DNA of 64,000 bases from SAR324 cluster bacterium (GCA_015231825.1 JADGAV010000003.1:178954-242953), one strand, 5' to 3'. Counted from the stretch's first letter, positions 15,952-36,903 are shown. Program-made: numbers and translations. The notes: a model not told the origin generated them from the letters alone.

Positions 15952-16653
15952 ATGACAACCCCTATTGATCTTTATTACTGGCCGACACCCAATGGCCACA
16001 AAATCACTATTTTACTGGAAGAGCAGGAAGTCCCGTACCAGATCATCCCAATCAACATCAGCAAAGGCGATCAATTTGAAGCAGATTTCCTCAAAATCGC
16101 CCCCAATAATCGAATGCCGGCTATTGTTGATCACGAACCCTCAGGAGGAGGGGAACCGATCAGCATTTTTGAGTCGGGAGCCATCATGCTTTATTTGGCT
16201 GAAGAATACGGTGGTTTTCTTCCCCATGAGGCTCGAGAAAAAGCAGAGGTGACGCAATGGTTGATGTGGCAGATGGGAGGTTTGGGGCCAATGGCCGGGC
16301 AGGCCCACCATTTTCGTCATTACGCTCAGGATAAAATTGAATACGCGATCAATCGCTATACGGATGAATGCAATCGGCTCTATGGAGTAATGGACAGGCG
16401 ACTGAAAGACCGGGATTTTCTTGCCGGAGAATACTCCATTGCCGATATGGCCTGCTGGCCCTGGGTCAAACCTTATGAACGGCAAGGGCAGGATCTCAGT
16501 GAGTTTCCTAACCTGAAACGCTGGTTCGAAACAATTGAAGCCCGTCCGGCGGTTGTTAAAGCAATTGAAGTTGGAAAGGAATATCGATCCAGACCTGAGG
16601 ATATGACCGATGAAGCAAGACAAATTCTTTTTGGCCAAACGGCGAGAAAATAA
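15952..16653 (+). CDS. Glutathione S-transferase family, YfcG/nu-class-like
   Basis: LYYWPTPNGHKI, PNNRMPAIVD, IFESGAIMLYLAE, QWLMWQMGGLGPMAGQAHHF and YSIADMACWPW. Confidence 0.92.
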   Translation: MTTPIDLYYWPTPNGHKITILLEEQEVPYQIIPINISKGDQFEADFLKIAPNNRMPAIVDHEPSGGGEPISIFESGAIMLYLAEEYGGFLPHEAREKAEVTQWLMWQMGGLGPMAGQAHHFRHYAQDKIEYAINRYTDECNRLYGVMDRRLKDRDFLAGEYSIADMACWPWVKPYERQGQDLSEFPNLKRWFETIEARPAVVKAIEVGKEYRSRPEDMTDEARQILFGQTARK

Positions 16654-16668
16654 AACAGGCTAAATGCG

Positions 16669-18276
16669 ATGACTGTTTTTGAGGCATTTTTGGAATCTGC
16701 ACAAAAATATCCGGATCATGAGTTTTTGTGTATCCCTCCTCAATCCGATCGTCACTACTATCCTGATGGAATAGAATTCTCTTTCTCCGAGCTTCGTGAA
16801 CGTGTATTGGTTTTAAGAGAAAAATACCAAAATGCGGGTTACGGAATGGGGCATCGGGTCGCATTGCTGCTTGAAAATCGCCCTGAACATATAATGCATT
16901 TCCTGGCCCTGAACAGCCTTGGTGCCGGTATCGTCCCTGTCAACCCCGAATACCGGCACGATGAAATGCTCTACCAGATGGAACATTCCGAAGCAGAACT
17001 CGTCGTCTCCGTTGCGGACAGGATCGCTGATCTGAAAACCGTCGCAGTCGAACGGGAAAAACCGTTGGCCCTCATGAACGGAGAAGACCTTCCCGCCCAT
17101 TTTCCTCCACCTTCTAAAAAAGCTCAAAGCGGAAGTCCAGTTCCGGACACAGAAGCTTGCCTGTTTTACACCTCAGGAACCACAGGGCGTCCGAAAGGAT
17201 GCATCTGCACCAATTTTTATTTCCTCAATGCGGGGCATTGGTACGCCAACATGGGCGGCCGACTGCACATCAATCCGGAAACAGAGCGATTGTACAATCC
17301 CCTGCCTCTGTTTCATATGAATGCCGGCGCCATTTCTTTGATGTGCATGATGCTGACAGGAGGCTGTCTGATCATTCCGGATCGCTTTCATCCCAAAAGC
17401 TGGTGGAAGGAAATCAAGGCAACGGATGCAACTATCGTCCATTATCTGGGAGTTGTGCCGCCACTCTTGCTGAATCAGGACGAAGTTCCTGAAGAGAAGC
17501 AGCATCAAGTCAAATTTGGATTGGGTGCCGGAGTGGAACCTGAGCTGCATGATCCCTTTGAGGAACGGTTCGGATTTCCATTGGTAGAAATATGGGGAAT
17601 GACCGAAACCGGGAGACTTTTTGGAGATCATATTGAACCCCGTCGCACCACGACCCGTGCTTTTGGGATTCCCTACGGCATTTTTGAAGCAAAGATCACC
17701 GATGAACAAGATCTGGAAGTTCCGCGAGAGCAGCCGGGGGAGCTTCTGGTTCGTTGTGCTGGAAACAATCCAAGAATGGGATTTTTTTCCGGCTATCTGA
17801 AAAATGAACAAGCCACTGAAGAAGCCTGGCGGGGAGGATGGTTTCACACAGGAGACGTGGTGCGGCAGGGTGCCGACGGAATGCTCTATTTCGTGGATCG
17901 CCAGAAAAATATCATCCGCCGCTCAGGTGAAAATATTGCGGCTGCAGAAGTAGAGGCAGTGCTCCAGGTTCATAAAAAAGTCGCGCAAATTGCAGTCATT
18001 GCAGTTCCCGATGAGCTGCGTGAAGAGGAAGTGATGGCGTGTGTTGTCCTGATGCCGGGCATTCATGGAGAAAAAGCAGTAGCAGAAGATCTCTTCGCCT
18101 GGTGCAGTGAGCGTTTGGCTTACTTCAAAGCACCCGGGTGGATATTGTTTTTGGACGCATTGCCCACCACTGGAACACAGAAAGTGCAAAAAACAAGAAT
18201 TTTTCCGGATAAAGTTGATCCCAGACGACAAGCAGGAATCTTTGATTTTCGTCAGCAAAAAAGAAAACGCCGTTAA
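16669..18276 (+). CDS. Acyl/aryl-CoA ligase, CaiC-like AMP-binding enzyme
   Basis: YTSGTTGRPKG, PLPLFHMNA, WGMTE, GWFHTGD, RRSGENI and LPTTGTQKVQK. Confidence 0.92.
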   Translation: MTVFEAFLESAQKYPDHEFLCIPPQSDRHYYPDGIEFSFSELRERVLVLREKYQNAGYGMGHRVALLLENRPEHIMHFLALNSLGAGIVPVNPEYRHDEMLYQMEHSEAELVVSVADRIADLKTVAVEREKPLALMNGEDLPAHFPPPSKKAQSGSPVPDTEACLFYTSGTTGRPKGCICTNFYFLNAGHWYANMGGRLHINPETERLYNPLPLFHMNAGAISLMCMMLTGGCLIIPDRFHPKSWWKEIKATDATIVHYLGVVPPLLLNQDEVPEEKQHQVKFGLGAGVEPELHDPFEERFGFPLVEIWGMTETGRLFGDHIEPRRTTTRAFGIPYGIFEAKITDEQDLEVPREQPGELLVRCAGNNPRMGFFSGYLKNEQATEEAWRGGWFHTGDVVRQGADGMLYFVDRQKNIIRRSGENIAAAEVEAVLQVHKKVAQIAVIAVPDELREEEVMACVVLMPGIHGEKAVAEDLFAWCSERLAYFKAPGWILFLDALPTTGTQKVQKTRIFPDKVDPRRQAGIFDFRQQKRKRR

Positions 18277-19850
18277 CTTCGCGTTATTTTTCCTGGTGAT
18301 TTGTTCAGAAAGGTTTCCAGAGATTTTCCTTGAGGATCATTCAATGCGGCTTCACGGGCAAAACGGAGCTCTTCTGCGCTCGGCAATCCTTGTGTACGAT
18401 CGGCCAATGCCGGTTCAACGAAAATTCTGAATATTGAGTCGAAATTCTGACGTCCCTGTTGATAAGTTTCTCCATAGCCTTTCAAGAGTTCTGCACATTT
18501 AACCATTTCAAACGCGAGCAATTGATCATGCTCCATAATACGAACCACCTGCCCCAACCAGGCATCTATCAGGTCCTGCTCAATTCGATATCGAAAAGTG
18601 AGCGGCCGTATTTTTTTTAACCGCGCGATCAGCCAAATGCGTAAAAAACCCGAGACAGTATCGGTCCGAATCTGCATCGGAATTCGCAGCTTCCCGAATC
18701 GTGGGAATTTCTGACCCAGGCGCAGCACAGGCCGGGCCAGAAAGGAAGGAAGCAGAGAACAAATTTCATCAATTCCCGGGTCGAGAAAGTCGGTGACTTG
18801 GACCGGTTCATTCGATCTGGCGTCGAGCTCTTTCCTTATCGACTCAAATCGGCCAGCACAGGTTTTCAGATGAGCCACTCGGATCACATCTTCATAGCTC
18901 ATCCACAGAGCCAACTGCCGCGCTATTTCGAGACAAAGCGCATAATCTTTTTTCTCCTCCTTCTCTTGAATTCGACATTGCAGCATTTCGAGACGGGAGA
19001 TATATTTCCGGGCATAAGCCAATCCCTGATAGTCCAATAATCGTACAATTCCTTCCAGGATCAAGGGATGGGAAACCGGAGGAAAAGAATTTTCCATTCT
19101 TTGCTGCAATTCCGATGGAATCTTTCGATTCACCGATTTTGCATGCGGGGATTCCACTGCAGATGATTCGGGGTCTTTCCTTTTCTTCTGGGCTACTTCC
19201 ATGCCGGCCTCGAACCCCTTCAGGTTGGATTCAACGGCTACTCCTTTTTGTCGAATGCTCTCCTGCAGCACCGCAGACGGAATGGGAAGCAGTTCGATCC
19301 CGGCAATCGCTCCCAGTAAAACAGCATTCTCCTTACTGCCGCATGCCTTTGCGGTTTTCTCCAAATCAAACAAAAGCACCTTTTTTGACATTGATTTTGC
19401 TGCCTGCAAAATTCCTTCTCCGTGATAGCGCCCGTCTCCTGGAGCAGTTTTTTCGAGCATGGCATAGTTTCGATGAGTGGAAGCAAGCAGTGTCGTGCGG
19501 TCAGGACTAACATAACCATTTTCCATGTTACGTCCTGCTTCCAGCAGTTCTGTAAAAACGGCAAGATCAATTTGTCCCGGGAAAGGGTACAAAGAGAGTA
19601 TTGGCTGCTTTCCTTTCAACTCGGTTCGTTTGACCGGAAAAATTTCAATATAATAGAAAGTCGCCCCCGTACGCTGGGCCACTCCGGGGATAGACGTACT
19701 TTGCACAGGAAAACCCTCGGATGTGGCTGCAAGGACCAGCCAGTCCGTCAAAATGCCTCCGCCTTCGCCTCCCAGTGCACCCACGAGGATCGTCAGGGGA
19801 TCCATCTGCGGGTACAAGCCAGAAGCCCCGGATTGTTCAGGAGCGCTCAT
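18273..19850 (-). CDS. iorB: Indolepyruvate:ferredoxin oxidoreductase beta-family subunit (long form with C-terminal helical extension)
   Basis: ALGGEGGGILTDW, QSTSIPGVAQRTGATFYYIE, LALWMSYEDVIRVAHLK and LLKGYGET. Start ATG 19850 overlaps the iorA stop (ATGA). Confidence 0.9.
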   Translation of the reverse strand: MSAPEQSGASGLYPQMDPLTILVGALGGEGGGILTDWLVLAATSEGFPVQSTSIPGVAQRTGATFYYIEIFPVKRTELKGKQPILSLYPFPGQIDLAVFTELLEAGRNMENGYVSPDRTTLLASTHRNYAMLEKTAPGDGRYHGEGILQAAKSMSKKVLLFDLEKTAKACGSKENAVLLGAIAGIELLPIPSAVLQESIRQKGVAVESNLKGFEAGMEVAQKKRKDPESSAVESPHAKSVNRKIPSELQQRMENSFPPVSHPLILEGIVRLLDYQGLAYARKYISRLEMLQCRIQEKEEKKDYALCLEIARQLALWMSYEDVIRVAHLKTCAGRFESIRKELDARSNEPVQVTDFLDPGIDEICSLLPSFLARPVLRLGQKFPRFGKLRIPMQIRTDTVSGFLRIWLIARLKKIRPLTFRYRIEQDLIDAWLGQVVRIMEHDQLLAFEMVKCAELLKGYGETYQQGRQNFDSIFRIFVEPALADRTQGLPSAEELRFAREAALNDPQGKSLETFLNKSPGKITRS

Positions 19851-22009
19851 ACTTCCTTTTTTCGGGGCTTGCGATCCCCGGAACAAAATTGAAAAATCCT
19901 AATAACAATGGATCTGATGCGGTTCAGTTTAACTTCATAGGGAAGCGGATTGTGCACAATTTCTGTGCGATAAAATGAAGGGCAAAGTGCGACGGTATGA
20001 GCTATCTCTCCGCACAATCCGCAGCCGACGCAATTATTGTCGACGGTGGCGACCGGGTCCCTGCGCAAGGGATCTTCACTTGCTTTGATCGTCAGGGAAG
20101 GACATCCGGAAAGTCTGATACACGAATGATCCCCTGTGCATACCGATGCATCAATGCCGAATCTGGTTTGAACGACACGCTTTCCTTCAAGGATTTTTTT
20201 TTGATTCTCCGGTTTAACTCGCCGTTGGCGCACCAACTGGCATTCTCCTTCCGCGAGAATAACTTTCAGTCCTCCTTCCTTGCTCGTCATCGCGGTACGC
20301 AGGATTTTGAGCATTTTCCTCACCTGGTAACTTGAGATTTTTCGAACCCAGCGGACTCCCAACCCTTTCAGCATGCTTTGAATCGAAATGTCTGAAAATT
20401 TATCTCCTGTTTTGTCATTCGAAGAAGGAATATACTGCTGCCCTGTTGCCGATGTGTAGCCGTTGTTGACGACCATCAGAATCGAATCGCTCTTCTTATT
20501 GAATTGACTATTGACCACACCGCTGGTCAGTCCGTTGTGCCAAAATCCGCCATCCCCCATGATACTGATTACACGTTTATCAAAGGCAGGACCGACCGCC
20601 GTGGAACCGGCCAGGGAGAGTCCATAACCCATCACGGTATTTCCTAGATTGAAAGGAGGCAGGGTAGAAAAAGTGTGACAGCCAATATCTGAACTGACAT
20701 GAACTTTGCCAAACTCTTTTTCCATGATTTTAATGGCGCTGAAGATGGGTCGTTCCGGACATCCTGTACAAAAACTGGGCGGTCTTTTGGGAACCGGCCG
20801 GGGACCGAGTTCCTTTGCAGCACGAAGAATATATTTTTTCACCCTCTGTATTTCAGCCGCAACAGGCCCCGCTTCAATCGCATGAGACCGGCTTTCACTG
20901 ACAAATTCAGCAATTCCTTCCAACAGTACCCGTCCGGTATACTCTCCTGCCATGGGCAAAAGGTTTTTTCCATAAACTGCCGTGTCTTGATTTTCTTTAC
21001 GGAGCAGCACATGCAGCGCTTGCTCCAGATAGTCAGGTTGTCCTTCCTCGATCATCAGCACGGCTTTTTTTCCCTGGCAAAACCCGGTCACTTCATCGGG
21101 AACAAGAGGATGAGTGACATTGAGCACCAGGAGCGGAATTCGGCACTGGCCGAAACTGTCCGCCAACCCCAATTGTTTGAGGGCCCGCAACACTGAATTG
21201 TAGAGTCCTCCCTGGAGAATGATGCCGACATCGTCGGCATCACCCGGAAAAATCTCATTGAGGCGATGCTTGCGAATAAAATCAACGGCCGCCGGCAGGC
21301 GAATTTCCACTTTGTGCTTTTCCTGGTGGTAGGTTCCCGGAGGAAGGCAAATGCGGTTGGGATCGAATTCGGGTTCACTGAGCAGATTTTTTCGCGAATA
21401 TTCCGGCGTTCTGTTTTCCTTGCAGACAAAACTTCCAAACACATGACAAGCGCGAATACGAAATTCCACCATCACCGGAGTATTGCTCGCTTCAGAAAGT
21501 TGAAAAGACTGTTCTATCAGGTCAACAAATTTTTCATGACCGGGTCGAGGATCGAGAAGCCATATCGAAGATTTCAGGGCAAAGGCATGGGAACGTTCCT
21601 GGATAATGCTCGCGCCCTCTCCATAGTCTTCTCCCACAATGATCACAGCACCCCCGACAACTCCAGCAGAGGCAAGGTTGGACAGTGCATCGGAGGCCAC
21701 ATTGGTCCCGACCACAGACTTCCAGGTTGCTGCCCCCCGAAGCGGATAATTGATCGAAGCACCCAGCATAGCAGCCGCGGCGGCTTCATTCGGACAATAC
21801 TCAAAATGGACCCCCAAATCATCGAGAATCTCTTCGGCCTCTCCGAGGACATCGATCAAATGAGAAATAGGCGCCCCCTGGTATCCACCAATATAGCTGA
21901 CACCAGACTGCAGCAGGGCCTTGGTGATGGCTAAAATGCCTTCTCCATAAAAGACCTCATTTTTCCCGAGCTTCAAAGACTCGATCTCTTTGGCAAATGA
22001 ACGTTCCAT
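19847..22009 (-). CDS. iorA: Indolepyruvate:ferredoxin oxidoreductase alpha-family subunit (TPP, 2x[4Fe-4S])
   Basis: GYQGAPIS, FCTGCPERP, SDIGCH, TPP motif GDGGFWHNG...NN, and C-terminal ferredoxin motifs CTGDHSC...GCP and CVGCGLCGE...CP. Confidence 0.93.
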   Translation of the reverse strand: MERSFAKEIESLKLGKNEVFYGEGILAITKALLQSGVSYIGGYQGAPISHLIDVLGEAEEILDDLGVHFEYCPNEAAAAAMLGASINYPLRGAATWKSVVGTNVASDALSNLASAGVVGGAVIIVGEDYGEGASIIQERSHAFALKSSIWLLDPRPGHEKFVDLIEQSFQLSEASNTPVMVEFRIRACHVFGSFVCKENRTPEYSRKNLLSEPEFDPNRICLPPGTYHQEKHKVEIRLPAAVDFIRKHRLNEIFPGDADDVGIILQGGLYNSVLRALKQLGLADSFGQCRIPLLVLNVTHPLVPDEVTGFCQGKKAVLMIEEGQPDYLEQALHVLLRKENQDTAVYGKNLLPMAGEYTGRVLLEGIAEFVSESRSHAIEAGPVAAEIQRVKKYILRAAKELGPRPVPKRPPSFCTGCPERPIFSAIKIMEKEFGKVHVSSDIGCHTFSTLPPFNLGNTVMGYGLSLAGSTAVGPAFDKRVISIMGDGGFWHNGLTSGVVNSQFNKKSDSILMVVNNGYTSATGQQYIPSSNDKTGDKFSDISIQSMLKGLGVRWVRKISSYQVRKMLKILRTAMTSKEGGLKVILAEGECQLVRQRRVKPENQKKILEGKRVVQTRFGIDASVCTGDHSCIRLSGCPSLTIKASEDPLRRDPVATVDNNCVGCGLCGEIAHTVALCPSFYRTEIVHNPLPYEVKLNRIRSIVIRIFQFCSGDRKPRKKEV

Positions 22010-22430
22010 CTCTCTCCGGAATTGAACCGCAAAATTTCTGATATTCTTTTTTCAGCGATCTGACTTCAATCAACACTTCCTCCGAGCCGGGAAAAGCAAT
22101 TCAATTTCAGACGCAACAGAAGACGCAGATTCTTTTAACTTTTCCTGGGATCCGCTAAAAACTGAGAACTATATTCAATTTTGTCGGCAATGAAAGTCAA
22201 TTCAATTGTTTAGTTTTTTATGAACTTTACCCTATGGTCGTATGGTCATTCAGAGACAAATCCCCGCCTAATCACGATTTATTCGAAATCTCAGCAATTT
22301 CGCCGCAGATCACACTTCCCAATTATGTTTTGAAACAAATCCCAATACGCTGAAATGATGAATTTAATCAATTGTTCACCTTTTCCGAAGCATCAAGGTC
22401 TGTCAGTTTTTCTCATTTAAAAAATTGGAA

Positions 22431-22463
22431 TTGACAACTGATCGTGGCAAAATTAGTATACCA
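22431..22463 (+). promoter_or_regulatory. Sigma70-type promoter with an overlapping GntR-like dyad
   Basis: TTGACA (22431-22436), 17-nt spacer, TAGTAT (22454-22459). The -10 box lies inside the imperfect palindrome TTAGTATACCAA. It precedes the binding protein-kinase genes. Confidence 0.6.
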
Positions 22464-22612
22464 AATTTCCCCAAATGGGGTATTTTATTTAATTCTTGAA
22501 AAATTTTCCATCGGGGATAACAAGAAGTATCCTTTGAATCGACTATTCTCATCCCTGATTTACATCAAAGCAAAAGTGGGCAAAACAAGTCAATTTTCAG
22601 TTGGAGGAATGA

Positions 22613-23779
22613 ATGATGGGATTTCTTAAGGGAACTTCATCGAGGCTGCTCACCGCAGCAGTTTTTTTGCTTCTGATCTCCGTTATTTTATATTCTGTCT
22701 GGTCGGACTTTAACAAACCGGCGGACCCGATAAAGATTGGACTGTCAAATACATTAACCGGACCGGCTTCGACCTCTGGAATCCACTCCAGGAACGCGGT
22801 CATCTTGGCCGTAGATCAAATCAACAAGTCCGGAGGCATCAAAGGCCGCCCATTGGAACTGATCATCAAAGACGACAAAGGTCAGGCAGATGAAGCAGTG
22901 AGAGTCGATCGCGAACTGATAAATGAAGGAGTGATCGGTATCATTGGTCACTACCTCAGTACTCTCAGTGTGAAAGCGGCCGGGATTGTCAGTGAAAGCC
23001 GGGTGCCGATGATCTCCACCGGGGCCACGACTCCTGAACTGGGCCGACTGGATGACTTTTTTCTACGTTTGATGGTGCCCGACAATCTGCGAACCCAGTT
23101 TTTTGCAGACCTGGTGTACGAGCGGCTGAAAATCAAAACGATGGCAATCATTACAGACCTTTCCAATCCCAATTACACCATTCCCTTCAGCCGGCATTTC
23201 AGAAAAAACTTCACGGAGCTGGGAGGGAGCATTTCATCTGCAGTCCGTTTTAATTCGCTAGAAAAGTATTCGGCGTCCGAAATAGCCAATCAGGTGACCG
23301 CATCAAATTCAGATGGTGTCCTTCTTGTCACCAATGCGATCAATGGTGCACTGCTCAGCCAGCGGTTGAGAATCATTGACCCGGAAATTAAACTGATTGT
23401 CTCCCCCTGGGCACTGCCCGAAGTAGATTTCATCAAAAACGGCGGTCAGGCGATTGAGGGTGCAATCAGTCTGGTCGAGCTCGACCTCGAATCTTCAAAT
23501 TCAAAATTTCGTACTTTCCGGGCGCAGTATCAAACACGATACAACGAGGAACTCAGCCTCAATGGCTACGTGGCATATGAAGCAGCACAGATTTTTTTTG
23601 AAGCTCTGGCGAAAACAGAAAATCCGGCAGACCTAAAAAAAAACATCCTCGAACAAGGCAATTTTGAAGGCCTGATCGATCAGATCACCCTCGATTCGTT
23701 TGGTGATCCCATCCGTCCTCTCTATATTGTTGAAGTGCAGAATTCTTTGATCAGGACAATTGGAAAAATGGAAAGATAA
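22613..23779 (+). CDS. Membrane-anchored/periplasmic LivK-type substrate-binding protein associated with a sensor kinase
   Basis: N-terminal TM, PIKIGLSNTLTGP, AVDQINKSGGIKGRPLELIIKDD and FEGLIDQITLDSFGD. Stop lies 4 nt before the kinase start. Confidence 0.88.
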   Translation: MMGFLKGTSSRLLTAAVFLLLISVILYSVWSDFNKPADPIKIGLSNTLTGPASTSGIHSRNAVILAVDQINKSGGIKGRPLELIIKDDKGQADEAVRVDRELINEGVIGIIGHYLSTLSVKAAGIVSESRVPMISTGATTPELGRLDDFFLRLMVPDNLRTQFFADLVYERLKIKTMAIITDLSNPNYTIPFSRHFRKNFTELGGSISSAVRFNSLEKYSASEIANQVTASNSDGVLLVTNAINGALLSQRLRIIDPEIKLIVSPWALPEVDFIKNGGQAIEGAISLVELDLESSNSKFRTFRAQYQTRYNEELSLNGYVAYEAAQIFFEALAKTENPADLKKNILEQGNFEGLIDQITLDSFGDPIRPLYIVEVQNSLIRTIGKMER

Positions 23780-23783
23780 GCCA

Positions 23784-28093: not shown

Positions 28094-28097
28094 GAAA

Positions 28098-29657
28098 TCA
28101 ATGAATTCGTTTTTCTCTTCCTTTCCAGAAAGGTTCTCTCAATTTGTTTTTCAAAATTTTCCCTGCACCGCTCAAAGGAAGTGGTTCTCCGCGAAATTCC
28201 ACGTTTCTGGGGATCTTGAATCCCCCCAATTTTCCGGTGCAGAAATCTATAATTTCCTTTTCTTCCGCATTGGATCCTTCTTTGAGAACAACGATGGCAT
28301 GCACCACTTCTCCCCACTGCTCATCGGGAATACCAACTACAGCACAGGAAGCGACGGCAGGATGCTGATAAATCACATTTTCTATTTCAACCGAATAAAT
28401 GTTTTCTCCCCCGGAGATAATCATGTCTTTCAAGCGGTCTGAAATATAGACAAACCCATCCTCGTCCATATAGCCCGCATCCTGTGAGTGCATCCAACCT
28501 TCGCGAATGGCGTTTGCGGTTTCTTCCGGACGTTTCCAGTAGCCTTTCATCACGTTGTCTCCCTTGACAATGACTTCACCCACCACCCCTCGTGGAACCT
28601 CTCTGCCGTCTTCATCCACAATTTTGACTTCAATGCTGGGAATAGCTCGTCCTGCCGATTTAATTTTTGAATTCGGTCCGTCCAGCGTATGGAATTTTGA
28701 AGGAAGAATGGTAGCAAGAGGGGAAAGCTCTGTCATTCCATAAGCCTGATTGAAGGTGCAATGGGGGATTTCCACCATAGCCTTCCTGATCACTTCTTCC
28801 GGCATCGGAGAAGCGCCATAAATAATTTTCTGCAGATGAGACAAATCGTAATTTCGGATCAAGGGATGATTCACCGTCATATTGATCATCGTAGGGACAA
28901 TCAGCGTATGAGTCACTTTCTCTGCTTCAAACACTTTGAGCATCGCTTCCGGTTCAAATCTAGGCATGAAAACGTGCAGTCCCTGAACCATGGTGATGCT
29001 GCCCGTCGAACAGATATCGGCAGCATGAAACATCGGTGCCGCATGCAGATAGACCGAGTCGCTGCTGTAATCAAACATCATCAGGGTGTTCAAATTGTTG
29101 AAAACCAAATTGTGATTCGTCAGCATCACTCCTTTGGGCAGCCCGGTGGTGCCTCCGGTATAAAACAGTCCTGCTACATCATCACTGTCGGAGGCCGCAT
29201 CAGGAATCGCATCTGCCGCATTCAGAATTTTTTCGAAATGATGAGTCCCATCGGCGGGCTTTTCCTGATCGGTAATATGAATAATCTCTTTGACCGATTC
29301 AAGCTTGCCTTCAAAATCAGCAAGCATGCCCACGAAGGTGTCATCCACCAGGAGAATTTCTGTCTCTGAATCATTGAGCATAAAAATCAGTTCAGGTGGC
29401 GAGAGGCGAATGTTGAGGGGAACCATGATCGCCCCTGCCCAGGGAACCGCATAATAATACTGCAGATAACAATCGCTGTTCAACGCCAAAATAGCGACTC
29501 GTCCTCGCTCGCTCAAGCCCAGATTTTTGAACGCTCCGGCAAGCTTGCTGATACGCGACCCCAATTCGCTCCAAGTGTACCTGCGAGTCCCGTCAACCGT
29601 GGCGACACGTGATCCATTCATCTGCATTGCGTTCTTCAACCCTTGCGTGATATACAT
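28098..29657 (-). CDS. Acyl-CoA ligase (FadD-like AMP-binding enzyme)
   Basis: YTGGTTGLPKGVML, APMFHAA, YGMTE, DRLKDMIISGGENIY and LPLSGAGKILK. Confidence 0.93.
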   Translation of the reverse strand: MYITQGLKNAMQMNGSRVATVDGTRRYTWSELGSRISKLAGAFKNLGLSERGRVAILALNSDCYLQYYYAVPWAGAIMVPLNIRLSPPELIFMLNDSETEILLVDDTFVGMLADFEGKLESVKEIIHITDQEKPADGTHHFEKILNAADAIPDAASDSDDVAGLFYTGGTTGLPKGVMLTNHNLVFNNLNTLMMFDYSSDSVYLHAAPMFHAADICSTGSITMVQGLHVFMPRFEPEAMLKVFEAEKVTHTLIVPTMINMTVNHPLIRNYDLSHLQKIIYGASPMPEEVIRKAMVEIPHCTFNQAYGMTELSPLATILPSKFHTLDGPNSKIKSAGRAIPSIEVKIVDEDGREVPRGVVGEVIVKGDNVMKGYWKRPEETANAIREGWMHSQDAGYMDEDGFVYISDRLKDMIISGGENIYSVEIENVIYQHPAVASCAVVGIPDEQWGEVVHAIVVLKEGSNAEEKEIIDFCTGKLGGFKIPRNVEFRGEPLPLSGAGKILKNKLREPFWKGREKRIH

Positions 29658-29774
29658 TTTTTCTCCGGTTCTTTAGTAACATGACTGGTCTGTTCACATT
29701 CTCTGAATGCGAGCAGCACCCTTCACTTTGTTGTACAATATCCCTGATCTGCAGTTGCTCTATCTAAAAGTTTG

Positions 29775-30668
29775 TCATTGTTGTCTGCTCACTCCTGCCA
29801 TCTCTTCCATAACAGCGCAGACCGCCGCAGTATCCTGTTTCGCCCTGCCATTGGCCAGCGCAGTTGTGTAGATTTGGGTGGATGCAGACATCAAGGGAAC
29901 AGGACATTGAAGCTGACTGGCAAAACTGCTGATGATATTGATGTCCTTCTGATAAACTTCCATCTTCATCGTCGCTTCATCATAGGATCCCTCCACCATC
30001 ATCGGGCCGCGCACTTCGAACATGCGGGAGGACCCCGCCCCGTCGCTGATGACTTTGTATACCAGTTCCGGGTCCAATCCACTCTTCATCCCGAGTACCA
30101 GGGCTTCTGCCGCGGCGACATTGTGGATTGTGACCAGCAGATTGGCAATAAATTTCATTTTGGACCCGGTGCCGAAATCGCCTACATAATAGTTGCCGCG
30201 AGAGAAACCTTCAAAGATCGAACTGCATTGTTCGCAGGCATCCGAATCTCCACTGGCGTAAACAATTAAATCTTTTTTGACCGCTTGAGCTCCGGTGCCG
30301 CTGAGGGGACAATCCAGCATTTCAATCCCTCCCGATTTCAAACGTTCATACGCATTCTGTTTTGTCTCCAGGGGAAGTGTGCTGGTTTCAACAACAATCA
30401 ATCCTGGTTTGGAAACCGCCATCAACCCATCCTTTCCATCCACTACGGCTTCCAGTGCCGCGATGCTTGGCAGCGAAGTGATCACCACATCGGATTGCTC
30501 GGCCAGATCTCGACAGGAATTCGCCGCACGTCCGTTCCGGCTGACCAGTGATTGGACTTGTTCGGGTTCAACATCATATCCCAGCACCGAAAAACCCGCT
30601 TTGAGGAGGTTTGCCGAGATGGCGGATCCCATAATTCCTAACCCGATAATACCAACTGTTTGTTTCAT
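29775..30668 (-). CDS. NAD(P)-dependent beta-hydroxyacid dehydrogenase (3-hydroxyisobutyrate dehydrogenase family)
   Basis: GIIGLGIMG, LDCPLSGTG and catalytic-Lys motif GSKMKFIANLL. Confidence 0.92.
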   Translation of the reverse strand: MKQTVGIIGLGIMGSAISANLLKAGFSVLGYDVEPEQVQSLVSRNGRAANSCRDLAEQSDVVITSLPSIAALEAVVDGKDGLMAVSKPGLIVVETSTLPLETKQNAYERLKSGGIEMLDCPLSGTGAQAVKKDLIVYASGDSDACEQCSSIFEGFSRGNYYVGDFGTGSKMKFIANLLVTIHNVAAAEALVLGMKSGLDPELVYKVISDGAGSSRMFEVRGPMMVEGSYDEATMKMEVYQKDINIISSFASQLQCPVPLMSASTQIYTTALANGRAKQDTAAVCAVMEEMAGVSRQQ

Positions 30669-30692
30669 GGTTGATCTCCTTCAAGGTAAATT

Positions 30693-32969
30693 TTACATTC
30701 GCAGCAATATATCCCGCAATATGGGATCACTGGCGATGGCCACTTCATTTTCAATTAAAGTCCCGCATCCGGGGCAATAAAACTGGCGATAGACCACTTG
30801 ATCATCGATGAAATCGATCGGATCGCCAATAAGCGGATTGGATCTGCTGATTTCTTTTTCTTCCAATTGGCAGTGATCTTTAAAATTGTCTTTCAGATCG
30901 CCTAAATCGGCATCACATTTGGCACAGGTCCAAAAGCTGCCGTTTTCATCCTGTTTGACATTGAGATATTCCGCCGCCTCCAGAATAATTTTCCCGGATC
31001 GATGCCCCGGTTGTCCTCCATTGACCCGGTTTCGGCGGACTTCGGATCTTTTTGCTTCCGTTAATGCAGTATCCACTTCACCATCAGCAGTGAGGACAAC
31101 ACCATACAATTCATTCGCTGCATTCGGGGAAATCAGGAAATTCTCAAGATCTGCCTGCACTTCAGCAGGATCACGGTCCATCGGATCACCAAATCCACCT
31201 CCACCAGACCAGCGCACGGCATAAACATCTTCCGGAAGTTGCGTAAAGTTTTCCTGACGGAGCTGCAGAGTGACCGATTTTCCTTCCAATTCTCCTATGT
31301 CTTCGGGCATGTTTTGAGCATGCATCCGCTCCAGCACATTGCTTTTCTTCAAAAACTGATACTGGTTGGTGGTAGAAGGATAACCGCCCATCATTCCGGG
31401 AGAAGTCGGCAATGCATTTCCGGAAGAAAGGGTGTCCTGGGTGATAAGCTCTGTGTTGTGAGGAATAAAACAACTTTCTGCCGACAGTCCTCCGCGATAT
31501 TTCCCCGCACCGCCCGAATCGGGAATTTCTTTACGGTAAAGGAACAAAAGGGGAAAACTTTGTTCCGTATGTTCAATATTGGGCAGCTGACAAATCGGGG
31601 TGCGTGCCTGACCTCCCGTATTGATGCCGTCCGCATGAGAAAACGCACCAATCGCTCCTCCAATCGGGTCGATCAGGAGATAGCCATAGCGTTCTCCCCA
31701 CTGATCAATGCCCCGAAAAATAGTAGCCGGCCATTGACTCGTTCCTCCAATACAAAAAATGTCTTTCCGCATTTGCGGATCAGGGAATATCATTTTTGAA
31801 ATAGCATTGTAGGCGGGATAAAGAGAAATCTCCATCGCCTGAACCGGAGCAGTGGAAACAGAGGCAGGAAAATTGGCACAATTGAAGGTCCCGGGACTGG
31901 GGTCAAACTTTATATGCCGCAAGGCTCCGCCGATGGCAAAATATTGATCCCAGCAAAGCAGTTCATTGATCGCCACCATCACAGATCCCCGCCAGCCGGA
32001 ATAGGTAGCATTCATCGCACCGTCCTGAGGAGCAGAACCTTCATTGTAAAAAGAAAGGGTGCTGCCTTTTTTTTCAACTGTCAGGATTACCCGATGCGTG
32101 CGCCGGTCTCCAGGGCGACAGGCTTCAATATAGGTCCGCTCCTGCCAGACCCCGTCAGGCAGCTTGGACATTTTGTTGAGAAATGCTTTTTCGGCATGGT
32201 TGATGATTTGTTTCATCACCCCCTTTACGGTCCGCGGACCATAGCGCTGGATGAGGGCAAGCACCCGCTCCCGGGCAGAAATATTCCCCGCCAGCTGCGC
32301 GCGGAAATCCAGGGCAACCATTTCAGGCTTTCGGGAAGACCGAAGATAAAGATCTTCAATGTCTTTGCGAACGACGTCGTTTTCTACAATCTTCACCGGA
32401 GGAATAAGAATGCCTTCGTCAAAAGCATCTCTTGCAGCGGGACAAAAACTTCCCGGAGTGATCCCGCCAATGTCATACTGGTGCAGACAATTGGTGACCC
32501 AGCAAAAAAGCTCTCCCTCATGAAATACCGGACAGATCAGCATCACATCCATTTGATGGGCTGCACCAACCCAGGGGTCGTTGGCCAGAAACATATCACC
32601 TTCCTGAATCCCGGGGTTTTCACTGCGATTCTCCAGGATCCATTTGACTTGAGTATCCGTCACCCCCGACATGTATTGCATATAAGGGCCAAAATAAATG
32701 AACTCCGCATCTTCTGTCAGCAGGGAAGGATTGAGATCCAGAGCATACATAGCAATCGGCGAACCTGAAATACGCTGAATGGTTGCACCATGTTCCTCAT
32801 TGATATTCCAAAGATTATGGCGGATTACTTCATAAGTGACAGGGTCAATATTCTGTTCCCATTCCCGATGCAGTTTTAAACGGTCCGATATTCGGAGTTT
32901 TTCCGGTGGAACATAAGCTTGGGAGACCCCATCAAACAGAGTATCCGGCATTTCGCTGATGCGTGGCAT
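30693..32969 (-). CDS. Hydantoinase B/oxoprolinase family subunit with fused C-terminal acetone-carboxylase-gamma-like Zn domain
   Basis: DPVTYEVIRH, NDPWVGAAHQMD, HQYDIGG, FDEGILIPPVK, DSGGAGKYRGG and GGGGFGDPMDRDP, then CAKC...RQFYCPGCGTLIENEV. Start ATG 32969 with RBS GAAAGGAG. Confidence 0.9.
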   Translation of the reverse strand: MPRISEMPDTLFDGVSQAYVPPEKLRISDRLKLHREWEQNIDPVTYEVIRHNLWNINEEHGATIQRISGSPIAMYALDLNPSLLTEDAEFIYFGPYMQYMSGVTDTQVKWILENRSENPGIQEGDMFLANDPWVGAAHQMDVMLICPVFHEGELFCWVTNCLHQYDIGGITPGSFCPAARDAFDEGILIPPVKIVENDVVRKDIEDLYLRSSRKPEMVALDFRAQLAGNISARERVLALIQRYGPRTVKGVMKQIINHAEKAFLNKMSKLPDGVWQERTYIEACRPGDRRTHRVILTVEKKGSTLSFYNEGSAPQDGAMNATYSGWRGSVMVAINELLCWDQYFAIGGALRHIKFDPSPGTFNCANFPASVSTAPVQAMEISLYPAYNAISKMIFPDPQMRKDIFCIGGTSQWPATIFRGIDQWGERYGYLLIDPIGGAIGAFSHADGINTGGQARTPICQLPNIEHTEQSFPLLFLYRKEIPDSGGAGKYRGGLSAESCFIPHNTELITQDTLSSGNALPTSPGMMGGYPSTTNQYQFLKKSNVLERMHAQNMPEDIGELEGKSVTLQLRQENFTQLPEDVYAVRWSGGGGFGDPMDRDPAEVQADLENFLISPNAANELYGVVLTADGEVDTALTEAKRSEVRRNRVNGGQPGHRSGKIILEAAEYLNVKQDENGSFWTCAKCDADLGDLKDNFKDHCQLEEKEISRSNPLIGDPIDFIDDQVVYRQFYCPGCGTLIENEVAIASDPILRDILLRM

Positions 32970-32982
32970 GATCCTTCTCCTT

Positions 32983-35082
32983 TCAAAGCTCAATTTCAAA
33001 ATTACCCCAGGCATCCACCGTCAAGTGTTGTCCCGGATGCAGCACAACGGTGGTCATCTCCAGTTCGAGAACTGCAGGGCCGCTGATTTGATTGCCCGGC
33101 ACAAGTTGGTGCCCGTCATAAATAGGAGTATCGTTTTTCGGACCAAGATCCGGCCAATGCACCTCCCGTGGGCGGCGAACCGCAGATTCCGGGATCTTTT
33201 CCGTCAGGACCTCTGCAGCTGGAATATGTGGTTTCGGAGTCTGTGCTGTTGCCCGGCAGCGCACTGCCACGATTTCTAACTGGGCACCGGGCAGTGACGC
33301 ACCTTTTCCATAAAGCTGCTCGTAGTTGACAACAAAACGCGTGCGCAAAGGCTCCAGCTGTGCGGCTTCAATCTGATCGCCATCAATTTCAACTTCCACT
33401 TCATGAATTTGCCCCTTATGCCGCATATCAAAGGTGAAGCGGAACTGCTGATGCTCTGCCTGAACCCCTTCTTCAATCAATTGTTCCAAAGCTTGTGTCT
33501 TCAAATTTCCGATGACGGCGTTGAGGCGAGCCGGATCAAAGGGGGAGCTCATAATATCAACCTGATCGCTGATGTGCAGAATATCTGCTGCGGCAGAACC
33601 AAAAGCACACCAGACTGAAGCAGTATCTCTCTGAGGAATTATTATCTTCTGCACTCCGAGTTCACGGGCGAAGACACCGGCATGCACCGGGCCGGCTCCT
33701 CCAAAGGCAAAGAGCACAAAATCCCTTGGATCAAACCCTTTTTGAATGGTCACTTTTCGGATCAAATCGGCCATTTGAAAATCAGCAATTTTCACAATCC
33801 CTGCCGCGCATTCGTATAAATCCATCCCCAAACGATCTGCAATTTCCCCAATTGCCGCTTCCGCGGCAGCTTTATCCAGCTGCATTGTACCACTGGCAAA
33901 ATGATCGGGTGAGAGATAGCCCAGTACAACATCGGCATCAGTCACTGTCGCCACCCGGCCCCCTCGCTGGTAACAGACAGGACCGGGAACAGCCCCTGCG
34001 CTTTCCGGCCCAACCCGCAAAGTGCCGGTGACTTCATCTATCCAAACTTTGCTTCCTCCACCGCTGCCGATCGCCTGTATATCGACTTTGGGTAAAAAAT
34101 ATTCATACTGATTGACCAGACTATGGAAGGAAAACGCCGGTTCGCCCTTGAAAACAACTCCCACGTCAAAAGAAGTTCCTCCCATGTCGGTCGTGATGAT
34201 ATTGGAATAGCCCATTGCTTCTCCAATGTATTTGGCTCCCATCACACCGGAGACCGGACCTGAATCCAAAGTCAGCAATGGTGCTTTCACAGCCCGTTCA
34301 ATCGCAATGGTTCCCCCGGCACACTGGGTGATTTGAACTGGAGACGAATACCCCAGTTGACTCAATTGCTCTTCTACCTTTCTCAGATAGGCAGTGGTTT
34401 CAGGACCAATATAGGCGTTCAGCGCCACTGCAGTGGTCCGTTCGTATTCACCCCATTTCGGAATCAGCTCTGAAGAGCAGGTCACGAACAGATCCGGCGC
34501 CATGGATTCGACCATCTGCTGTACACGGCGTTCATGAAGCGGCTGCAAAAATGACCAGAGGAAACAAATCGCAATGGCCTCCACCCCCTGATCCACCAGA
34601 CGCTTGATGGACTGCCTCACTTCTTCCTCATTCAGTTCAACCACAATTTTGCCAAAACAATCCACTCGCTCCGAGACCCCCTGGATTAAACGCTTGGGAA
34701 CAATCGGATCCGGCTTGCTGCTCTCTGCAAAATGCACGACCTTCTGAACATCACGTCCCGAAAGGCCTCGGGATCCGCGCATAATATGGATCACATCGTT
34801 GTGCCCGCGGGTAGTGATCAATCCCACTTTCGCTCCCTTTTTCTGCACAACGGCATTGGTGCCCACCGTCGTGCCATGGGCGAGATGAGTGATGGATTGA
34901 GCCAGCTTTTCCGGAGACAATTCCAGTTTCTCAGCAGCCGCGGTCAACGCGGCCATCATTCCATTGGTGAAATTGCCGGGAGTTGAGGGCGCTTTTGCTG
35001 TGATCACCGTTCCTGCCTGATCAACAACGACACAATCAGTAAAGGTGCCACCAATGTCTATTCCACAGAGATAGGACGTCAT
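32983..35082 (-). CDS. Hydantoinase A/oxoprolinase family ATP-binding subunit
   Basis: GIDIGGTFTD, HGTTVGTNA, EYERTTAVALNAY, DMGGTSFD, GPESAGAVPGPVCY, FGGAGPVHA and GPAVLE. Confidence 0.95.
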   Translation of the reverse strand: MTSYLCGIDIGGTFTDCVVVDQAGTVITAKAPSTPGNFTNGMMAALTAAAEKLELSPEKLAQSITHLAHGTTVGTNAVVQKKGAKVGLITTRGHNDVIHIMRGSRGLSGRDVQKVVHFAESSKPDPIVPKRLIQGVSERVDCFGKIVVELNEEEVRQSIKRLVDQGVEAIAICFLWSFLQPLHERRVQQMVESMAPDLFVTCSSELIPKWGEYERTTAVALNAYIGPETTAYLRKVEEQLSQLGYSSPVQITQCAGGTIAIERAVKAPLLTLDSGPVSGVMGAKYIGEAMGYSNIITTDMGGTSFDVGVVFKGEPAFSFHSLVNQYEYFLPKVDIQAIGSGGGSKVWIDEVTGTLRVGPESAGAVPGPVCYQRGGRVATVTDADVVLGYLSPDHFASGTMQLDKAAAEAAIGEIADRLGMDLYECAAGIVKIADFQMADLIRKVTIQKGFDPRDFVLFAFGGAGPVHAGVFARELGVQKIIIPQRDTASVWCAFGSAAADILHISDQVDIMSSPFDPARLNAVIGNLKTQALEQLIEEGVQAEHQQFRFTFDMRHKGQIHEVEVEIDGDQIEAAQLEPLRTRFVVNYEQLYGKGASLPGAQLEIVAVRCRATAQTPKPHIPAAEVLTEKIPESAVRRPREVHWPDLGPKNDTPIYDGHQLVPGNQISGPAVLELEMTTVVLHPGQHLTVDAWGNFEIEL

Positions 35083-35095
35083 AGAATTCTCCCGC

Positions 35096-35626
35096 TTATT
35101 GTGCAGAATCTACAACCAGGTTTCCGGACTCATCGAGACTCAGTCCAGTTTCCTGCGCACGATTCAGCACCGAAGGTGACCAGGACACTTTTCCTGCATC
35201 GGTGCCACCGAGAATTGCCATCAGATAGCCGGGTTCTTCTCCCACGTTTCGAAATCCGCGCATCACTCCCACGGGGACTGAAATCACATCAAAAGGTTCC
35301 AGAATAAATTCATTTTCTCCATCATCCCCCCAATAAACTGACCATCTGCCGGACATTGGGATGAAAACCTCCACAGTGGGGTGCGAATGCAGGGCGGCTC
35401 CTTTTCCAGGCTCCGCTCCCACATAGGTAATGTTGAATCCCTGAGGATCGCTGATTGCCGGTTTGAGTTCAGGGTCTTCGGTAACGCCGGGGCCGATCAC
35501 GTTGAAGATGTCCCTCAGGTGTTCCGGCAATCGGGTGTCAACAAAAGCCTGTTTGCTGGGTTTCAGTGTTTTGAAACGAGCCAGACGCTCCTCCATTTTT
35601 TCCTTTGAAATAGTGACTGTATCCAT
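35096..35626 (-). CDS. Cupin-domain protein
   Basis: GAALHSHPTVEVFIPMSGRW...DVISVPVGVMRGFRN; first gene of the hydantoinase operon. Confidence 0.88.
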   Translation of the reverse strand: MDTVTISKEKMEERLARFKTLKPSKQAFVDTRLPEHLRDIFNVIGPGVTEDPELKPAISDPQGFNITYVGAEPGKGAALHSHPTVEVFIPMSGRWSVYWGDDGENEFILEPFDVISVPVGVMRGFRNVGEEPGYLMAILGGTDAGKVSWSPSVLNRAQETGLSLDESGNLVVDSAQ

Positions 35627-36036
35627 ATTCGGTTTCTGTATTTTTCGGGTTCTGAAAGTTGCTCCAAAAGCATTTAAGAATCATGAATTTCTAACACAAT
35701 TATTTTCCATTTGACAGAAGAAAATTGTTTGGAATTTGAGTGGCAGGGAGTAAGAATTTTTCTTCCCTTTTTTGGATTCTGCATGATAAAGTTGCTTCCT
35801 GGAAGGCAGTTAGCTGATCGTGTTCGAGACCCTGACTGCCAAACAAAGAAATTGAACAAAGATGACACCAGGAGCAAGGTCGCGTTCAATTCATTCGGTA
35901 AATGAATCCATTAGGATTCGGCCCTTAGAGACTCACTCAACATGTTGATTTCCGGGCAATTGAGCAAGATTTCAGCAAAAGTTTCATTGAATTTCGTACC
36001 GGAAAAAACCTGAACCTTTCAATTGGAGGATCGCAG

Positions 36037-36903
36037 ATGAAAACACCGCGAATCAAATACACTCCCAGCTGGGCACGAAGACCCTTGAAGCCGCCGCCCG
36101 GCGGCAACCTGATCGTTTTCACTCTGGTCAATGTGGAACATTGGGTTTACAGCGAAACCATGCCCAGGACCGTAATCCCTCCCCCGCAGGGAGGATCGAA
36201 TCCTCCGCCTGATATTCCGAACTGGAGTTGGAAAGAATATGGATGGCGTTGCGGTTTGCCCAGAGTGATGAAAATTCTGAAGGAATTTGGAATACGGGTA
36301 ACGGCCAGTATCAATGGTGACGTCTGCAACGCCTACCCGGAGATGGCCCGTTACATGAACGATGAGGATTGGGATTTTATGGGTCATGGCTGGGTGCAGA
36401 CCCCCATGAACAAAGTTTCAGACGAACGGGAAACTTTGATCAAAACAAAAGAAACCATCGAGGCATTTACCGGAAAGAAAATGCGGGGATGGATGGGGCC
36501 CGGCATGGTAGAGACCTTTGATACCCCTGATCTAATGAAAGAAGTCGGGATCGACTGGACCTGTGATTTCCCAATTGATGATTTACCATTCGAGATCGAA
36601 ACCAAGCATGGGCCTCTTGTCGGCCTGCCATACACTTTTGAACTGAACGACATCGTCGTCTATCCTGTCGAAAAACACAGTTCAGAAGAAATCTATCGTC
36701 GTTTCCGAGACGGACTTCCCGTCTACTTGGAAGAAAGCAAAAACGAACCGCGCATCATGGTCATTTCCGCGCATCCTTATACCATCGGTGCGCCGCATCG
36801 GATCGTCTGGTACCGCAAAATGTTTGAAGACCTCTCCCGTTTACCCGGCGTGGTCTATATGACAGGCAGCGAAATAGCAGACTGGTATCTTTCCCAACAG
36901 TAA
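36037..36903 (+). CDS. Polysaccharide deacetylase family amidohydrolase (PuuE/allantoinase-like)
   Basis: VNVEHW, NWSWKEYGWRCG, FMGHGW, RGWMGPG, DDLPF, PYTFELND and ISAHPY-x-x-GAPHR. Cytoplasmic; RBS GGAGGA. Confidence 0.88.
   Translation: MKTPRIKYTPSWARRPLKPPPGGNLIVFTLVNVEHWVYSETMPRTVIPPPQGGSNPPPDIPNWSWKEYGWRCGLPRVMKILKEFGIRVTASINGDVCNAYPEMARYMNDEDWDFMGHGWVQTPMNKVSDERETLIKTKETIEAFTGKKMRGWMGPGMVETFDTPDLMKEVGIDWTCDFPIDDLPFEIETKHGPLVGLPYTFELNDIVVYPVEKHSSEEIYRRFRDGLPVYLEESKNEPRIMVISAHPYTIGAPHRIVWYRKMFEDLSRLPGVVYMTGSEIADWYLSQQ

Follow-up and report, generated by a model that had tools for sequence, protein, structure and literature searches.

A conserved acyl-CoA ligase–DpgC pair within a mosaic gene cluster of a SAR324 bacterium, and a proposed O2-dependent route from arylacetates to aroyl-CoA

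What does a homologue of DpgC, the dioxygenase of glycopeptide-antibiotic producers, do in a bacterium outside the actinomycetes, and do the genes around it serve the same pathway? The question is raised by a gene cluster of 21 kb (positions 15952–36903) in a genome of the SAR324 cluster (GCA_015231825.1, JADGAV010000003.1:178954-242953), of which the whole 64,000-nucleotide (nt) stretch analysed is here called the window. An earlier note had tentatively read the cluster as a single catabolic island, in which a hydantoinase-type pair (HyuAB) opens a lactam such as oxindole, a ligase activates the product with coenzyme A (CoA), the DpgC-like enzyme oxygenates it and IorAB converts the resulting 2-oxoacid to an aroyl-CoA. 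The genes it listed are all present: listing of the open reading frames of the window, with family assignment by Pfam and NCBIfam scans, recovered each of them with clear family matches. The core of the idea, namely a ligase, a cofactor-free alpha-dioxygenation and a thiamine-dependent step to an aroyl-CoA, is partly supported by our analysis and strengthened at the level of the protein family. The 21 kb themselves are a gene cluster, a mosaic of modules and not a demonstrable mobile island. In the reading that we favour, by a narrow measure, a unit of one ligase (Lig2) and the DpgC-like enzyme would be followed by IorAB and then by the benzoyl-CoA (Box) pathway, with the Hyu genes forming a separate module and a glutathione transferase (GST) and second ligase (Lig1) standing apart.

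The DpgC-like gene (26663–28093, + strand) encodes a crotonase-fold protein of 476 aa. Its likeness to the DpgC of antibiotic producers (PDB 2np9 and 5kag) covers the crotonase core, the N-terminal domain and the key positions; residues 64–453 align with residues 30–417 of 5kag_A (E 9e-93). Five residues, E223, I269, R287, G329 and Q332, align with E189, I235, R254, G296 and Q299 of DpgC, and in an alignment of 16 diverse homologues all five positions are invariant or at least 90% conserved. We take the DpgC residues to be those of the oxyanion hole and of the phenolic-hydroxyl contacts, roles that were reportedly described by Widboom and by Fielding in 2007. By fold and active site the protein groups with DpgC; by equivalog score, given below, it does not. 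It is 36–41% identical to Streptomyces genes annotated dpgC. Homologues outside the actinomycetes are very numerous and 43–79% identical to it, DpgC being encoded in at least 595 stretches of species-representative genomes. PMC4618494 describes the DpgC reaction as a cofactor-free, O2-dependent dioxygenation. On this model, the window protein would be a cofactor-free arylacetyl-CoA 1,2-dioxygenase that yields an arylglyoxylate and CoA. One relative carries a homologue with an in-frame TAA (G010:C43:123874-125223), which could be a pseudogene or a sequencing error.

Lig2 (28098–29657, − strand; AMP-binding and AMP-binding_C domains) is convergent with dpgC, the two gene ends lying 4 nt apart, and its nearest solved structure is feruloyl-CoA synthetase (8wev, E 8e-100). 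This pairing recurs. In 42 of the 102 other loci an acyl-CoA ligase is found no more than 500 nt from DpgC, of the PaaK type in 36 and of the Lig2 type in six (eight when the distance is widened to 5 kb). Among 138 scanned immediate neighbours of DpgC, no family is commoner than AMP-binding (32 hits, of which 26 have the PaaK-type C-terminal domain), and the three PaaK-type neighbours that were checked score 675–680 bits against a phenylacetate-CoA-ligase cut-off of 646. In the ligase tree, Lig2, its orthologue from a close relative and all other Lig2-type DpgC-linked ligases form one clade (support 99/98), which leaves out both the Hyu-linked plasmid ligases and the paralogues from the same genome. 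The order of ligation followed by DpgC-type dioxygenation, already proposed in the earlier note, gains from the adjacency of the ligase, its dedicated clade and the conserved DpgC positions. Lig2 is thus a candidate arylacetate-CoA ligase that would work together with the DpgC-like enzyme, and given a ligase as partner, the substrate of the latter would be a free acid that is taken up and activated and not a polyketide-derived thioester. In an Acidiferrobacteraceae metagenome-assembled genome (MAG), a gene of the FlK (fluoroacetyl-CoA-thioesterase) family (L013:10315-10731) lies between DpgC and the Lig2-type ligase.

The limits of the conserved unit are drawn by one metagenome contig, L119, from a close relative whose housekeeping genes are 72–94% identical to those of the window's genome. 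It carries DpgC and Lig2 at 79% identity and in the same convergent layout, and a DeoC aldolase gene follows directly; the window has this gene 12 kb further along. The Lig2–DeoC spacer of L119 retains 73 nt of a PuuE-like gene (L119:6275-6347 against window 36636-36708; 81% identity, E 9e-13). Because this remnant survives, a segment of about 12 kb, comprising the dehydrogenase, Hyu, cupin and PuuE-like genes, must have been deleted in the L119 lineage, with DpgC and Lig2 kept. The converse, that the window gained the Hyu segment by insertion, was considered and rejected in favour of that deletion on account of the same remnant. The conserved functional unit is the DpgC homologue with Lig2, not the whole 21 kb.

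From the observed gene content, conservation patterns and residue conservation we infer the following enzymatic steps and substrates. Lig2 would form the CoA thioester of an arylacetate, be it phenylacetate or a ring-substituted relative. The DpgC-like enzyme, on the model of DpgC acting on 3,5-dihydroxyphenylacetyl-CoA, would add O2 at the alpha-carbon without a cofactor, releasing the arylglyoxylate and CoA. The nearby IorAB would most likely decarboxylate the arylglyoxylate oxidatively, and the aroyl-CoA would then enter the aerobic Box pathway, encoded elsewhere in a genome without PaaA.

The last of these steps finds its counterpart in the genome, which is 93.5% complete and encodes BoxB (845 bits), BoxC (908 bits) and a benzoate-CoA ligase (737 bits). 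A profile search of it found no PaaA, and the only PaaA_PaaC match was BoxB itself; a small caution attaches to PaaA negatives, as a control E. coli genome also gave no PaaA or PaaA_PaaC match, perhaps because the strain has no paa genes, perhaps because they escape the first-look filter. Across genomes with a PaaK-type neighbour of DpgC, PaaA exceeds its cut-off in 0/36, BoxB in 25/36 and the IorB family in 23/36; when all genomes with a DpgC–ligase pair are taken together, BoxB is found in 28 and IorB in 27 of the 40. Five genomes of the phylum that hold both DpgC and IorA have BoxB in every case and PaaA in none. Furthermore, in one genome (G296) boxC, boxB, paaK and dpgC are contiguous, with a PaaK-type ligase. 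A family-level sample of 101 genomes around G090 contains DpgC in 26, PaaA in 33 and both in none (Fisher p 6e-6), with BoxB in 25 of the 26 DpgC-positive and 41 of the 75 DpgC-negative genomes (p 7e-5); these genomes are kin and not independent, so that the p-values overstate the case, their completeness was not reported, and for many of them the scoring covered some but not all of the first-look candidates. In the order-level sample around the same genome, four of 121 were DpgC-positive, too few for a table. Within the family sample, DpgC is nested in BoxB-positive and excluded from PaaA-positive genomes. In the window's genome itself, boxC and boxB on contig C77 (G000, L110:9751-15785) are followed by a gene that scores 855 bits for 4-hydroxybenzoyl-CoA reductase alpha (cut-off 995), and a molybdenum hydroxybenzoyl-CoA reductase-like enzyme thus stands beside aerobic Box genes.

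The step between DpgC and Box would fall to IorAB. IorB (18273–19886, − strand; beta subunit with POR and DUF6537 domains) scores 546 bits against NF006179 (cut-off 348), and IorA (19847–22009, − strand) is the thiamine pyrophosphate (TPP)-binding alpha subunit, with a TPP_enzyme_C domain and a C-terminal Cys cluster at 660/663/666/676; the two genes overlap by 40 nt. With IorB over its cut-off, the TPP domain in IorA and the genes adjacent, the pair belongs to the two-subunit proteobacterial indolepyruvate oxidoreductase (IOR) family. It falls outside the archaeal-type IOR alpha equivalog, IorA reaching 280 bits against the 651 of TIGR03336. A second iorAB of the same genome lies on contig C4 among housekeeping genes. 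Orthologues of IorA occur in 10 of the 87 other genomes of the phylum and, among 40 relatives searched, in five of the eight with DpgC and two of the 32 without it; orthologues that are 66–69% identical lie in relatives on other contigs than dpgC. A row of iorA, iorB and dpgC on one strand was found in the metagenome contig L129, the sole recurrence of IorAB among the 102 other loci. In addition, a TPP decarboxylase-like gene adjoins DpgC in four loci (L016, L128, L130 and L134, the last three near-identical to each other), and E1_dh occurs in three of the 138 scanned neighbours. Recurring thiamine-dependent 2-oxoacid enzymes beside DpgC fit a 2-oxoacid product, and the window IorAB is placed as the putative enzyme from arylglyoxylate to aroyl-CoA. 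That a thiamine-dependent enzyme takes over the 2-oxoacid and carries it to an aroyl-CoA finds support in the independent L129 row and the four loci with TPP neighbours; the frequency of IorB among pair genomes also speaks for the interpretation. A DpgC-specific IorA subclade was sought in the IorA tree and was not found. The IorA orthologue of one relative contains an in-frame TGA (G003:C88:8782-10899), which could mark a pseudogene or a sequencing error.

Several observations weigh against this reading. IorAB is not near DpgC in 101 of the 102 other loci; the IorA of L129 groups in the tree with the housekeeping-flanked paralogue on C4 and not with the window copy; and in G028 and G026, the closest genomes with both orthologues, IorA and DpgC lie on different contigs. 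IorAB is not an obligatory partner of DpgC, because the IorB family is found in none of eight Kofleriaceae, Stellaceae and Chloroflexota genomes with DpgC and PaaK. The DpgC homologue itself reaches 394.4 bits against NF042432, below the equivalog cut-off of 530, with profile positions 6–400 of 412 covered. The window partner is Lig2-type and not PaaK-type, and phenylacetate may not be the substrate of the window pair, given that PaaA is present in two of the four other Lig2-type-pair genomes (BoxB 3/4, IorB 4/4). With a Lig2-type partner and the hydroxyl-contact residues kept, a ring-substituted arylacetate is as likely as phenylacetate here. Bradyrhizobium iriomotense (G091) carries DpgC together with a canonical paaK–paaA cluster, and two further genomes (G128 and G129) have both DpgC and PaaA; all three are counter-examples to the exclusion pattern. 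Homologues beside a type III polyketide synthase (PKS; three loci) or aminotransferases (three loci) suggest biosynthesis, and the kinship and partial scoring behind the co-occurrence counts fall on the same side. The wider claim is that the DpgC enzymes outside the actinomycetes are the key step of a widespread, undescribed third phenylacetate-type route, followed by a thiamine enzyme, which would be IorAB in the window and a decarboxylase or an E1-type dehydrogenase in other genomes, and then by Box, and replacing PaaABCDE in hundreds of species; we advance it tentatively, as plausible and somewhat short of probable.

Could the juxtaposition be due to chance, and the DpgC-like protein have another crotonase-type activity, as a hydratase or thioesterase, on a non-aromatic acyl-CoA? 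The whole cluster recurs nowhere, its genes fall into at least five transcription units on both strands across the 21 kb, and the protein scores below the DpgC equivalog cut-off. Against this, its match to DpgC is full-length with the key positions kept, the ligase pairing is strong and repeated, phenylacetate-CoA-ligase equivalogs included, and the co-occurrence is patterned, with BoxB and against PaaA. We regard this explanation as unlikely.

A biosynthetic role has a lower probability still. Here the arylglyoxylate made by the DpgC-like enzyme would go into an arylglycine, in the manner of glycopeptide clusters, or into some other secondary metabolite, and the nearness of iorAB would be accidental. 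Type III PKS genes do stand beside DpgC homologues 52–56% identical to that of the window (L123, L124 and L126), class-V aminotransferase genes stand beside DpgC in three other loci (L016, L018 and L122), and the residues taken to bind a phenolic hydroxyl in DpgC are kept. Yet family scans of the window found no dpgA (type III PKS), dpgB or dpgD, HpgT, aminotransferase or non-ribosomal peptide synthetase (NRPS) gene; pairing with a ligase implies that the enzyme's substrate starts out as a free acid that the cell takes up; and a biosynthetic enzyme accords poorly with the exclusion of DpgC from PaaA-bearing genomes and its nesting in those with BoxB. The three PKS-adjoined loci are of interest as possible Dpg-like biosynthetic sets outside the actinomycetes. 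So is L016:8320-13422, from a Burkholderiales MAG, in which a class-V aminotransferase with an N-terminal helix-turn-helix-like part, DpgC and a TPP enzyme follow one another on one strand.

The Hyu genes bear on the two remaining alternatives. Their transcription unit begins with a Cupin_2 protein (35096–35626, − strand), for which no PDB relative was found at E 0.01 and which is not similar to the DAD-family cupin adjoining hyuBA of M. branderi. It continues with the ATPase-type subunit HyuA (32983–35082, − strand; Hydantoinase_A plus its N and C domains) and with HyuB (30693–33014, − strand; Hydantoinase_B), to which a C-terminal acetone-carboxylase-gamma-like domain is fused (Acetone_carb_G, residues 675–770). 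A beta-hydroxyacid dehydrogenase gene of the HIBADH / tartronate-semialdehyde-reductase family (29775–30668, − strand; all NCBIfam matches below their cut-offs) sits between hyuB and Lig2. The best solved relative of HyuB is the delta subunit of acetophenone carboxylase (ApcD, 5l9w_A, E 3.7e-52), and its fused tail, with two CxxC pairs, matches ApcB (E 3e-7). HyuA is about equally near to acetophenone carboxylase gamma (ApcC, E 1.7e-127), N-methylhydantoinase (E 1.5e-125) and caprolactamase alpha (E 5e-120). The pair does not fall among the ATP-dependent lactamases (CapAB, oxoprolinase, N-methylhydantoinase), its CapA and CapB scores being 585 and 168 bits against cut-offs of 1000 each, and a gamma-free pair being expected there in place of the fused domain of HyuB. 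The parts of a ketone carboxylase, one HyuA-like, one HyuB-like and a Cys-rich gamma, are all present, with NCBIfam scores far below the cut-offs and HyuA equidistant from the hydrolases.

Six annotated plasmid contexts, with homologues 31–45% identical, served as a sample of Hyu neighbourhoods. The gamma component is separate or fused, a ligase directly follows or lies within 1 kb of the hyu genes in three of the six, and the neighbours include a thiolase, acyl-CoA dehydrogenases, short-chain dehydrogenases/reductases (SDRs), a 2,3-butanediol dehydrogenase, P450s and a gene of the dihydroxyacetophenone-dioxygenase family; neither DpgC nor lactam-related genes were seen in any of the six. The unit of cupin, HyuA, HyuB with its gamma domain, and dehydrogenase reads as a module of its own, ATP-dependent and ketone-carboxylase-like and at most tentatively tied to DpgC, with HyuB as the proposed catalytic subunit.

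Such a module invites the idea of a ketone route, in which a ketone would be converted to a beta-keto acid through carboxylation by HyuAB with its gamma domain, the acid would be processed by the dehydrogenase or Lig2, and the DpgC-like enzyme would oxygenate the acidic alpha-carbon of the beta-ketoacyl-CoA, as in an apc-bal-like module with an oxygenase instead of a thiolase. The carboxylase-like features of HyuB, the ligase after hyuAB both here and in half of the plasmid contexts, and the failure of family scans to reveal a thiolase in the cluster would all agree with it. We nevertheless consider it very improbable, in that Hyu accompanies DpgC in none of the 102 other loci, L119 keeps DpgC and Lig2 without Hyu, Lig2 belongs to the DpgC-linked and not to the Hyu-linked clade, and the PaaK-type partners elsewhere point to arylacetates.

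The lowest probability falls to the single pathway proposed originally, with lactam opening by HyuAB and ATP, ligation, dioxygenation and the IorAB step to aroyl-CoA all encoded in the 21 kb. Lig2 does lie on the same strand at the 3′ end of the cupin–hyuA–hyuB–dehydrogenase unit, HyuA–HyuB–(dehydrogenase)–ligase layouts recur on plasmids of Rhodococcus opacus and Haloterrigena, the L119 remnant suggests that Lig2 and the Hyu segment were neighbours as early as the common ancestor, and the iad loci join iorAB with a route through isatinate. These points are outweighed by the absence of HyuA and HyuB near DpgC in all 102 loci and of DpgC in all six HyuB contexts, by the intact DpgC–Lig2 pair in L119 without the Hyu segment, by the position of the plasmid ligases outside the Lig2 clade, by the nearness of HyuB to acetophenone carboxylase with a gamma domain typical of carboxylases, by Hyu neighbours elsewhere that are thiolases, acyl-CoA dehydrogenases, SDRs and 2,3-butanediol dehydrogenase and not lactam genes, and by family scans that found no Rieske oxygenase or MarR of the iad type. 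As entry step, the HyuAB lactam hydrolase is thus not supported, in view of the other DpgC loci, the L119 deletion and its own carboxylase-like make-up, and the oxindole variant meets a further, chemical objection: an ortho-amino arylacetyl thioester such as 2-aminophenylacetyl-CoA should re-form the lactam, here oxindole.

A conserved 21-kb island was rejected as well. IorA, IorB, HyuA and HyuB were absent within 10 kb of DpgC in 80 loci of species-representative genomes and in six loci of relatives (0/86 in all), so the cluster does not recur as one island, and in seven IorAB loci of relatives GST and Lig1 are missing. The phylum comprises only 88 species genomes, phylum and class coinciding; DpgC was found in eight of the 40 relatives searched, and HyuB in one of the 87 other genomes, as a partial orthologue without the operon. 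When the neighbourhoods of DpgC homologues are compared as the earlier note had suggested, the ligase is conserved as predicted, IorAB appears a single time and the hydantoinase pair not at all.

In the rest of the cluster, the YfcG-like glutathione transferase / disulfide oxidoreductase (15952–16653, + strand; NF010579 278 bits, below the cut-off of 332) ends 16 nt 5′ of Lig1 (16669–18276, + strand; assigned from Pfam and NCBIfam), which is convergent with iorB. For Lig1, neither a PDB relative at E 1e-50 nor a match at E 1e-100 among the other 87 genomes of the phylum was found. Between iorAB and dpgC lies a pair that the earlier note had not listed, a periplasmic solute-binding protein (22613–23779, + strand; Peripla_BP_6) and a hybrid histidine kinase (23760–26402, + strand; dCache-HAMP-PAS-HisKA-HATPase-REC), whose genes overlap and which ends 260 nt upstream of dpgC. 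The binding protein is a possible sensor partner of the kinase; its PDB relatives are generic HAAT-family binders that give no clue to a ligand, and other DpgC loci do not have the kinase as a conserved neighbour. A second Peripla_BP_6 binding protein is encoded upstream, at 3602–4879. Divergent from the hyu unit, a polysaccharide-deacetylase-fold protein (36037–36903, + strand) shows distant likeness to PuuE allantoinase (3cl6, E 1e-16).

A GcvA-type LysR regulator (14524–15435, − strand; NF008352 354 bits, cut-off 288) marks the left flank. The G+C content of the cluster, 0.44–0.51, equals that of the flanks, and no sign of a mobile island in the form of deviant composition or mobility genes was found in the flanks scanned (a scan that did not extend to tRNAs and repeats), which hold molybdopterin, housekeeping and sugar-use genes. 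Scanning for promoters and terminators was uninformative, with 30 promoter-like sites found where 17.4 were expected and 15 terminator-like sites where 18.5 were. Before the DeoC aldolase, 36943–41517 encodes an Lcl_C-domain protein (308 aa) and a 1149-aa protein with PAN and pentapeptide repeats, both missing at the corresponding place in L119. Further downstream (53951–58377) are an HpcH/HpaI aldolase, an esterase and a mandelate-racemase-family enzyme.

The core idea is apparently not in print. Papers on DpgC with dioxygenase and CoA, among those listed, appear from title and the start of the abstract to deal with antibiotic biosynthesis, with the chemistry of oxygenases or enzymes, or with unrelated topics. 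We found none that gives a DpgC homologue a catabolic role, in a search outside which most subscription journals fall. Nor did we find a paper that joins DpgC with indolepyruvate or phenylglyoxylate, or iorAB with isatin, and a phrase search gave no relevant mention of a phenylacetyl-CoA dioxygenase or of a DpgC-like or DpgC-homolog enzyme. Phenylacetate is a hub of aromatic breakdown, on which phenylalanine, styrene, lignin pieces and auxin-like acids converge. To our knowledge two routes lead from it, the aerobic Paa epoxidase route and the anaerobic molybdoenzyme route. If our proposal is correct, a cofactor-free, O2-dependent alpha-oxidation feeding Box would be the third. The large non-actinobacterial branch of a rare enzyme class would thereby gain its first physiological role, and the many genomes that have a phenylacetate-CoA ligase and Box genes and no Paa epoxidase would be explained. 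Two or three recombinant proteins would suffice to test the proposal directly.

How, then, does the locus compare with known systems? From antibiotic DpgC, the window copy differs in being paired with a ligase, non-actinobacterial and proposed as catabolic, without DpgA/B/D, HpgT or NRPS nearby. The acetophenone carboxylase (apc-bal) and acetone carboxylase systems resemble the Hyu module in the matches of HyuB to ApcD, of its tail to ApcB and of HyuA to ApcC, and in a ligase that follows on the same strand. The module differs from apc-bal in its NCBIfam scores (209 and 468 bits, against 1500 each), in the fusion of the gamma-like domain to HyuB, in having no ApcA or ApcE in the window, and in a following ligase that belongs to the DpgC-linked clade.

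The iad loci of Variovorax and Bradyrhizobium contain the iorA/iorB homologues IadA and IadB and an AMP-ligase, IadF, and their route leads through isatin and isatinate to anthranilate, according to passages of PMC9613470 and PMC12852158; the earlier note was correct in recalling that such loci hold iorAB and pass through isatinate. Those passages assign no function to IadAB. As described in PMC12852158, the locus consists of iadAB with the Rieske genes iadCDE and the MarR gene iadR. Judged by gene content against these descriptions, the window cluster is not an iad locus, as it lacks the Rieske IadCDE, the MarR IadR, a thiolase and a cyclase.

Closer in chemical logic are the two routes of phenylacetate breakdown. 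The Paa pathway, with PaaK and the PaaABCDE epoxidase, begins with CoA activation as proposed here, and 36 DpgC loci have a PaaK-type neighbour; in contrast to Paa, the side chain and not the ring would be attacked, in a genome where PaaA and PaaC were not found. The anaerobic Pad route uses the ligase PadJ, the molybdoenzyme PadBCD and the phenylglyoxylate oxidoreductase PadEFGHI to turn phenylacetate into phenylacetyl-CoA, phenylglyoxylate and benzoyl-CoA in turn, and IOR converts arylpyruvates to arylacetyl-CoA, as given in PMC5109826, with which the background supplied by the earlier note agrees. The Pad pathway follows the same chemical logic as the route proposed for the window. Where Pad has a molybdoenzyme, however, the window route would use O2 and a cofactor-free crotonase-fold enzyme; where it has the five-subunit PadEFGHI, the two-subunit IorAB would act, delivering its product to the aerobic Box pathway.

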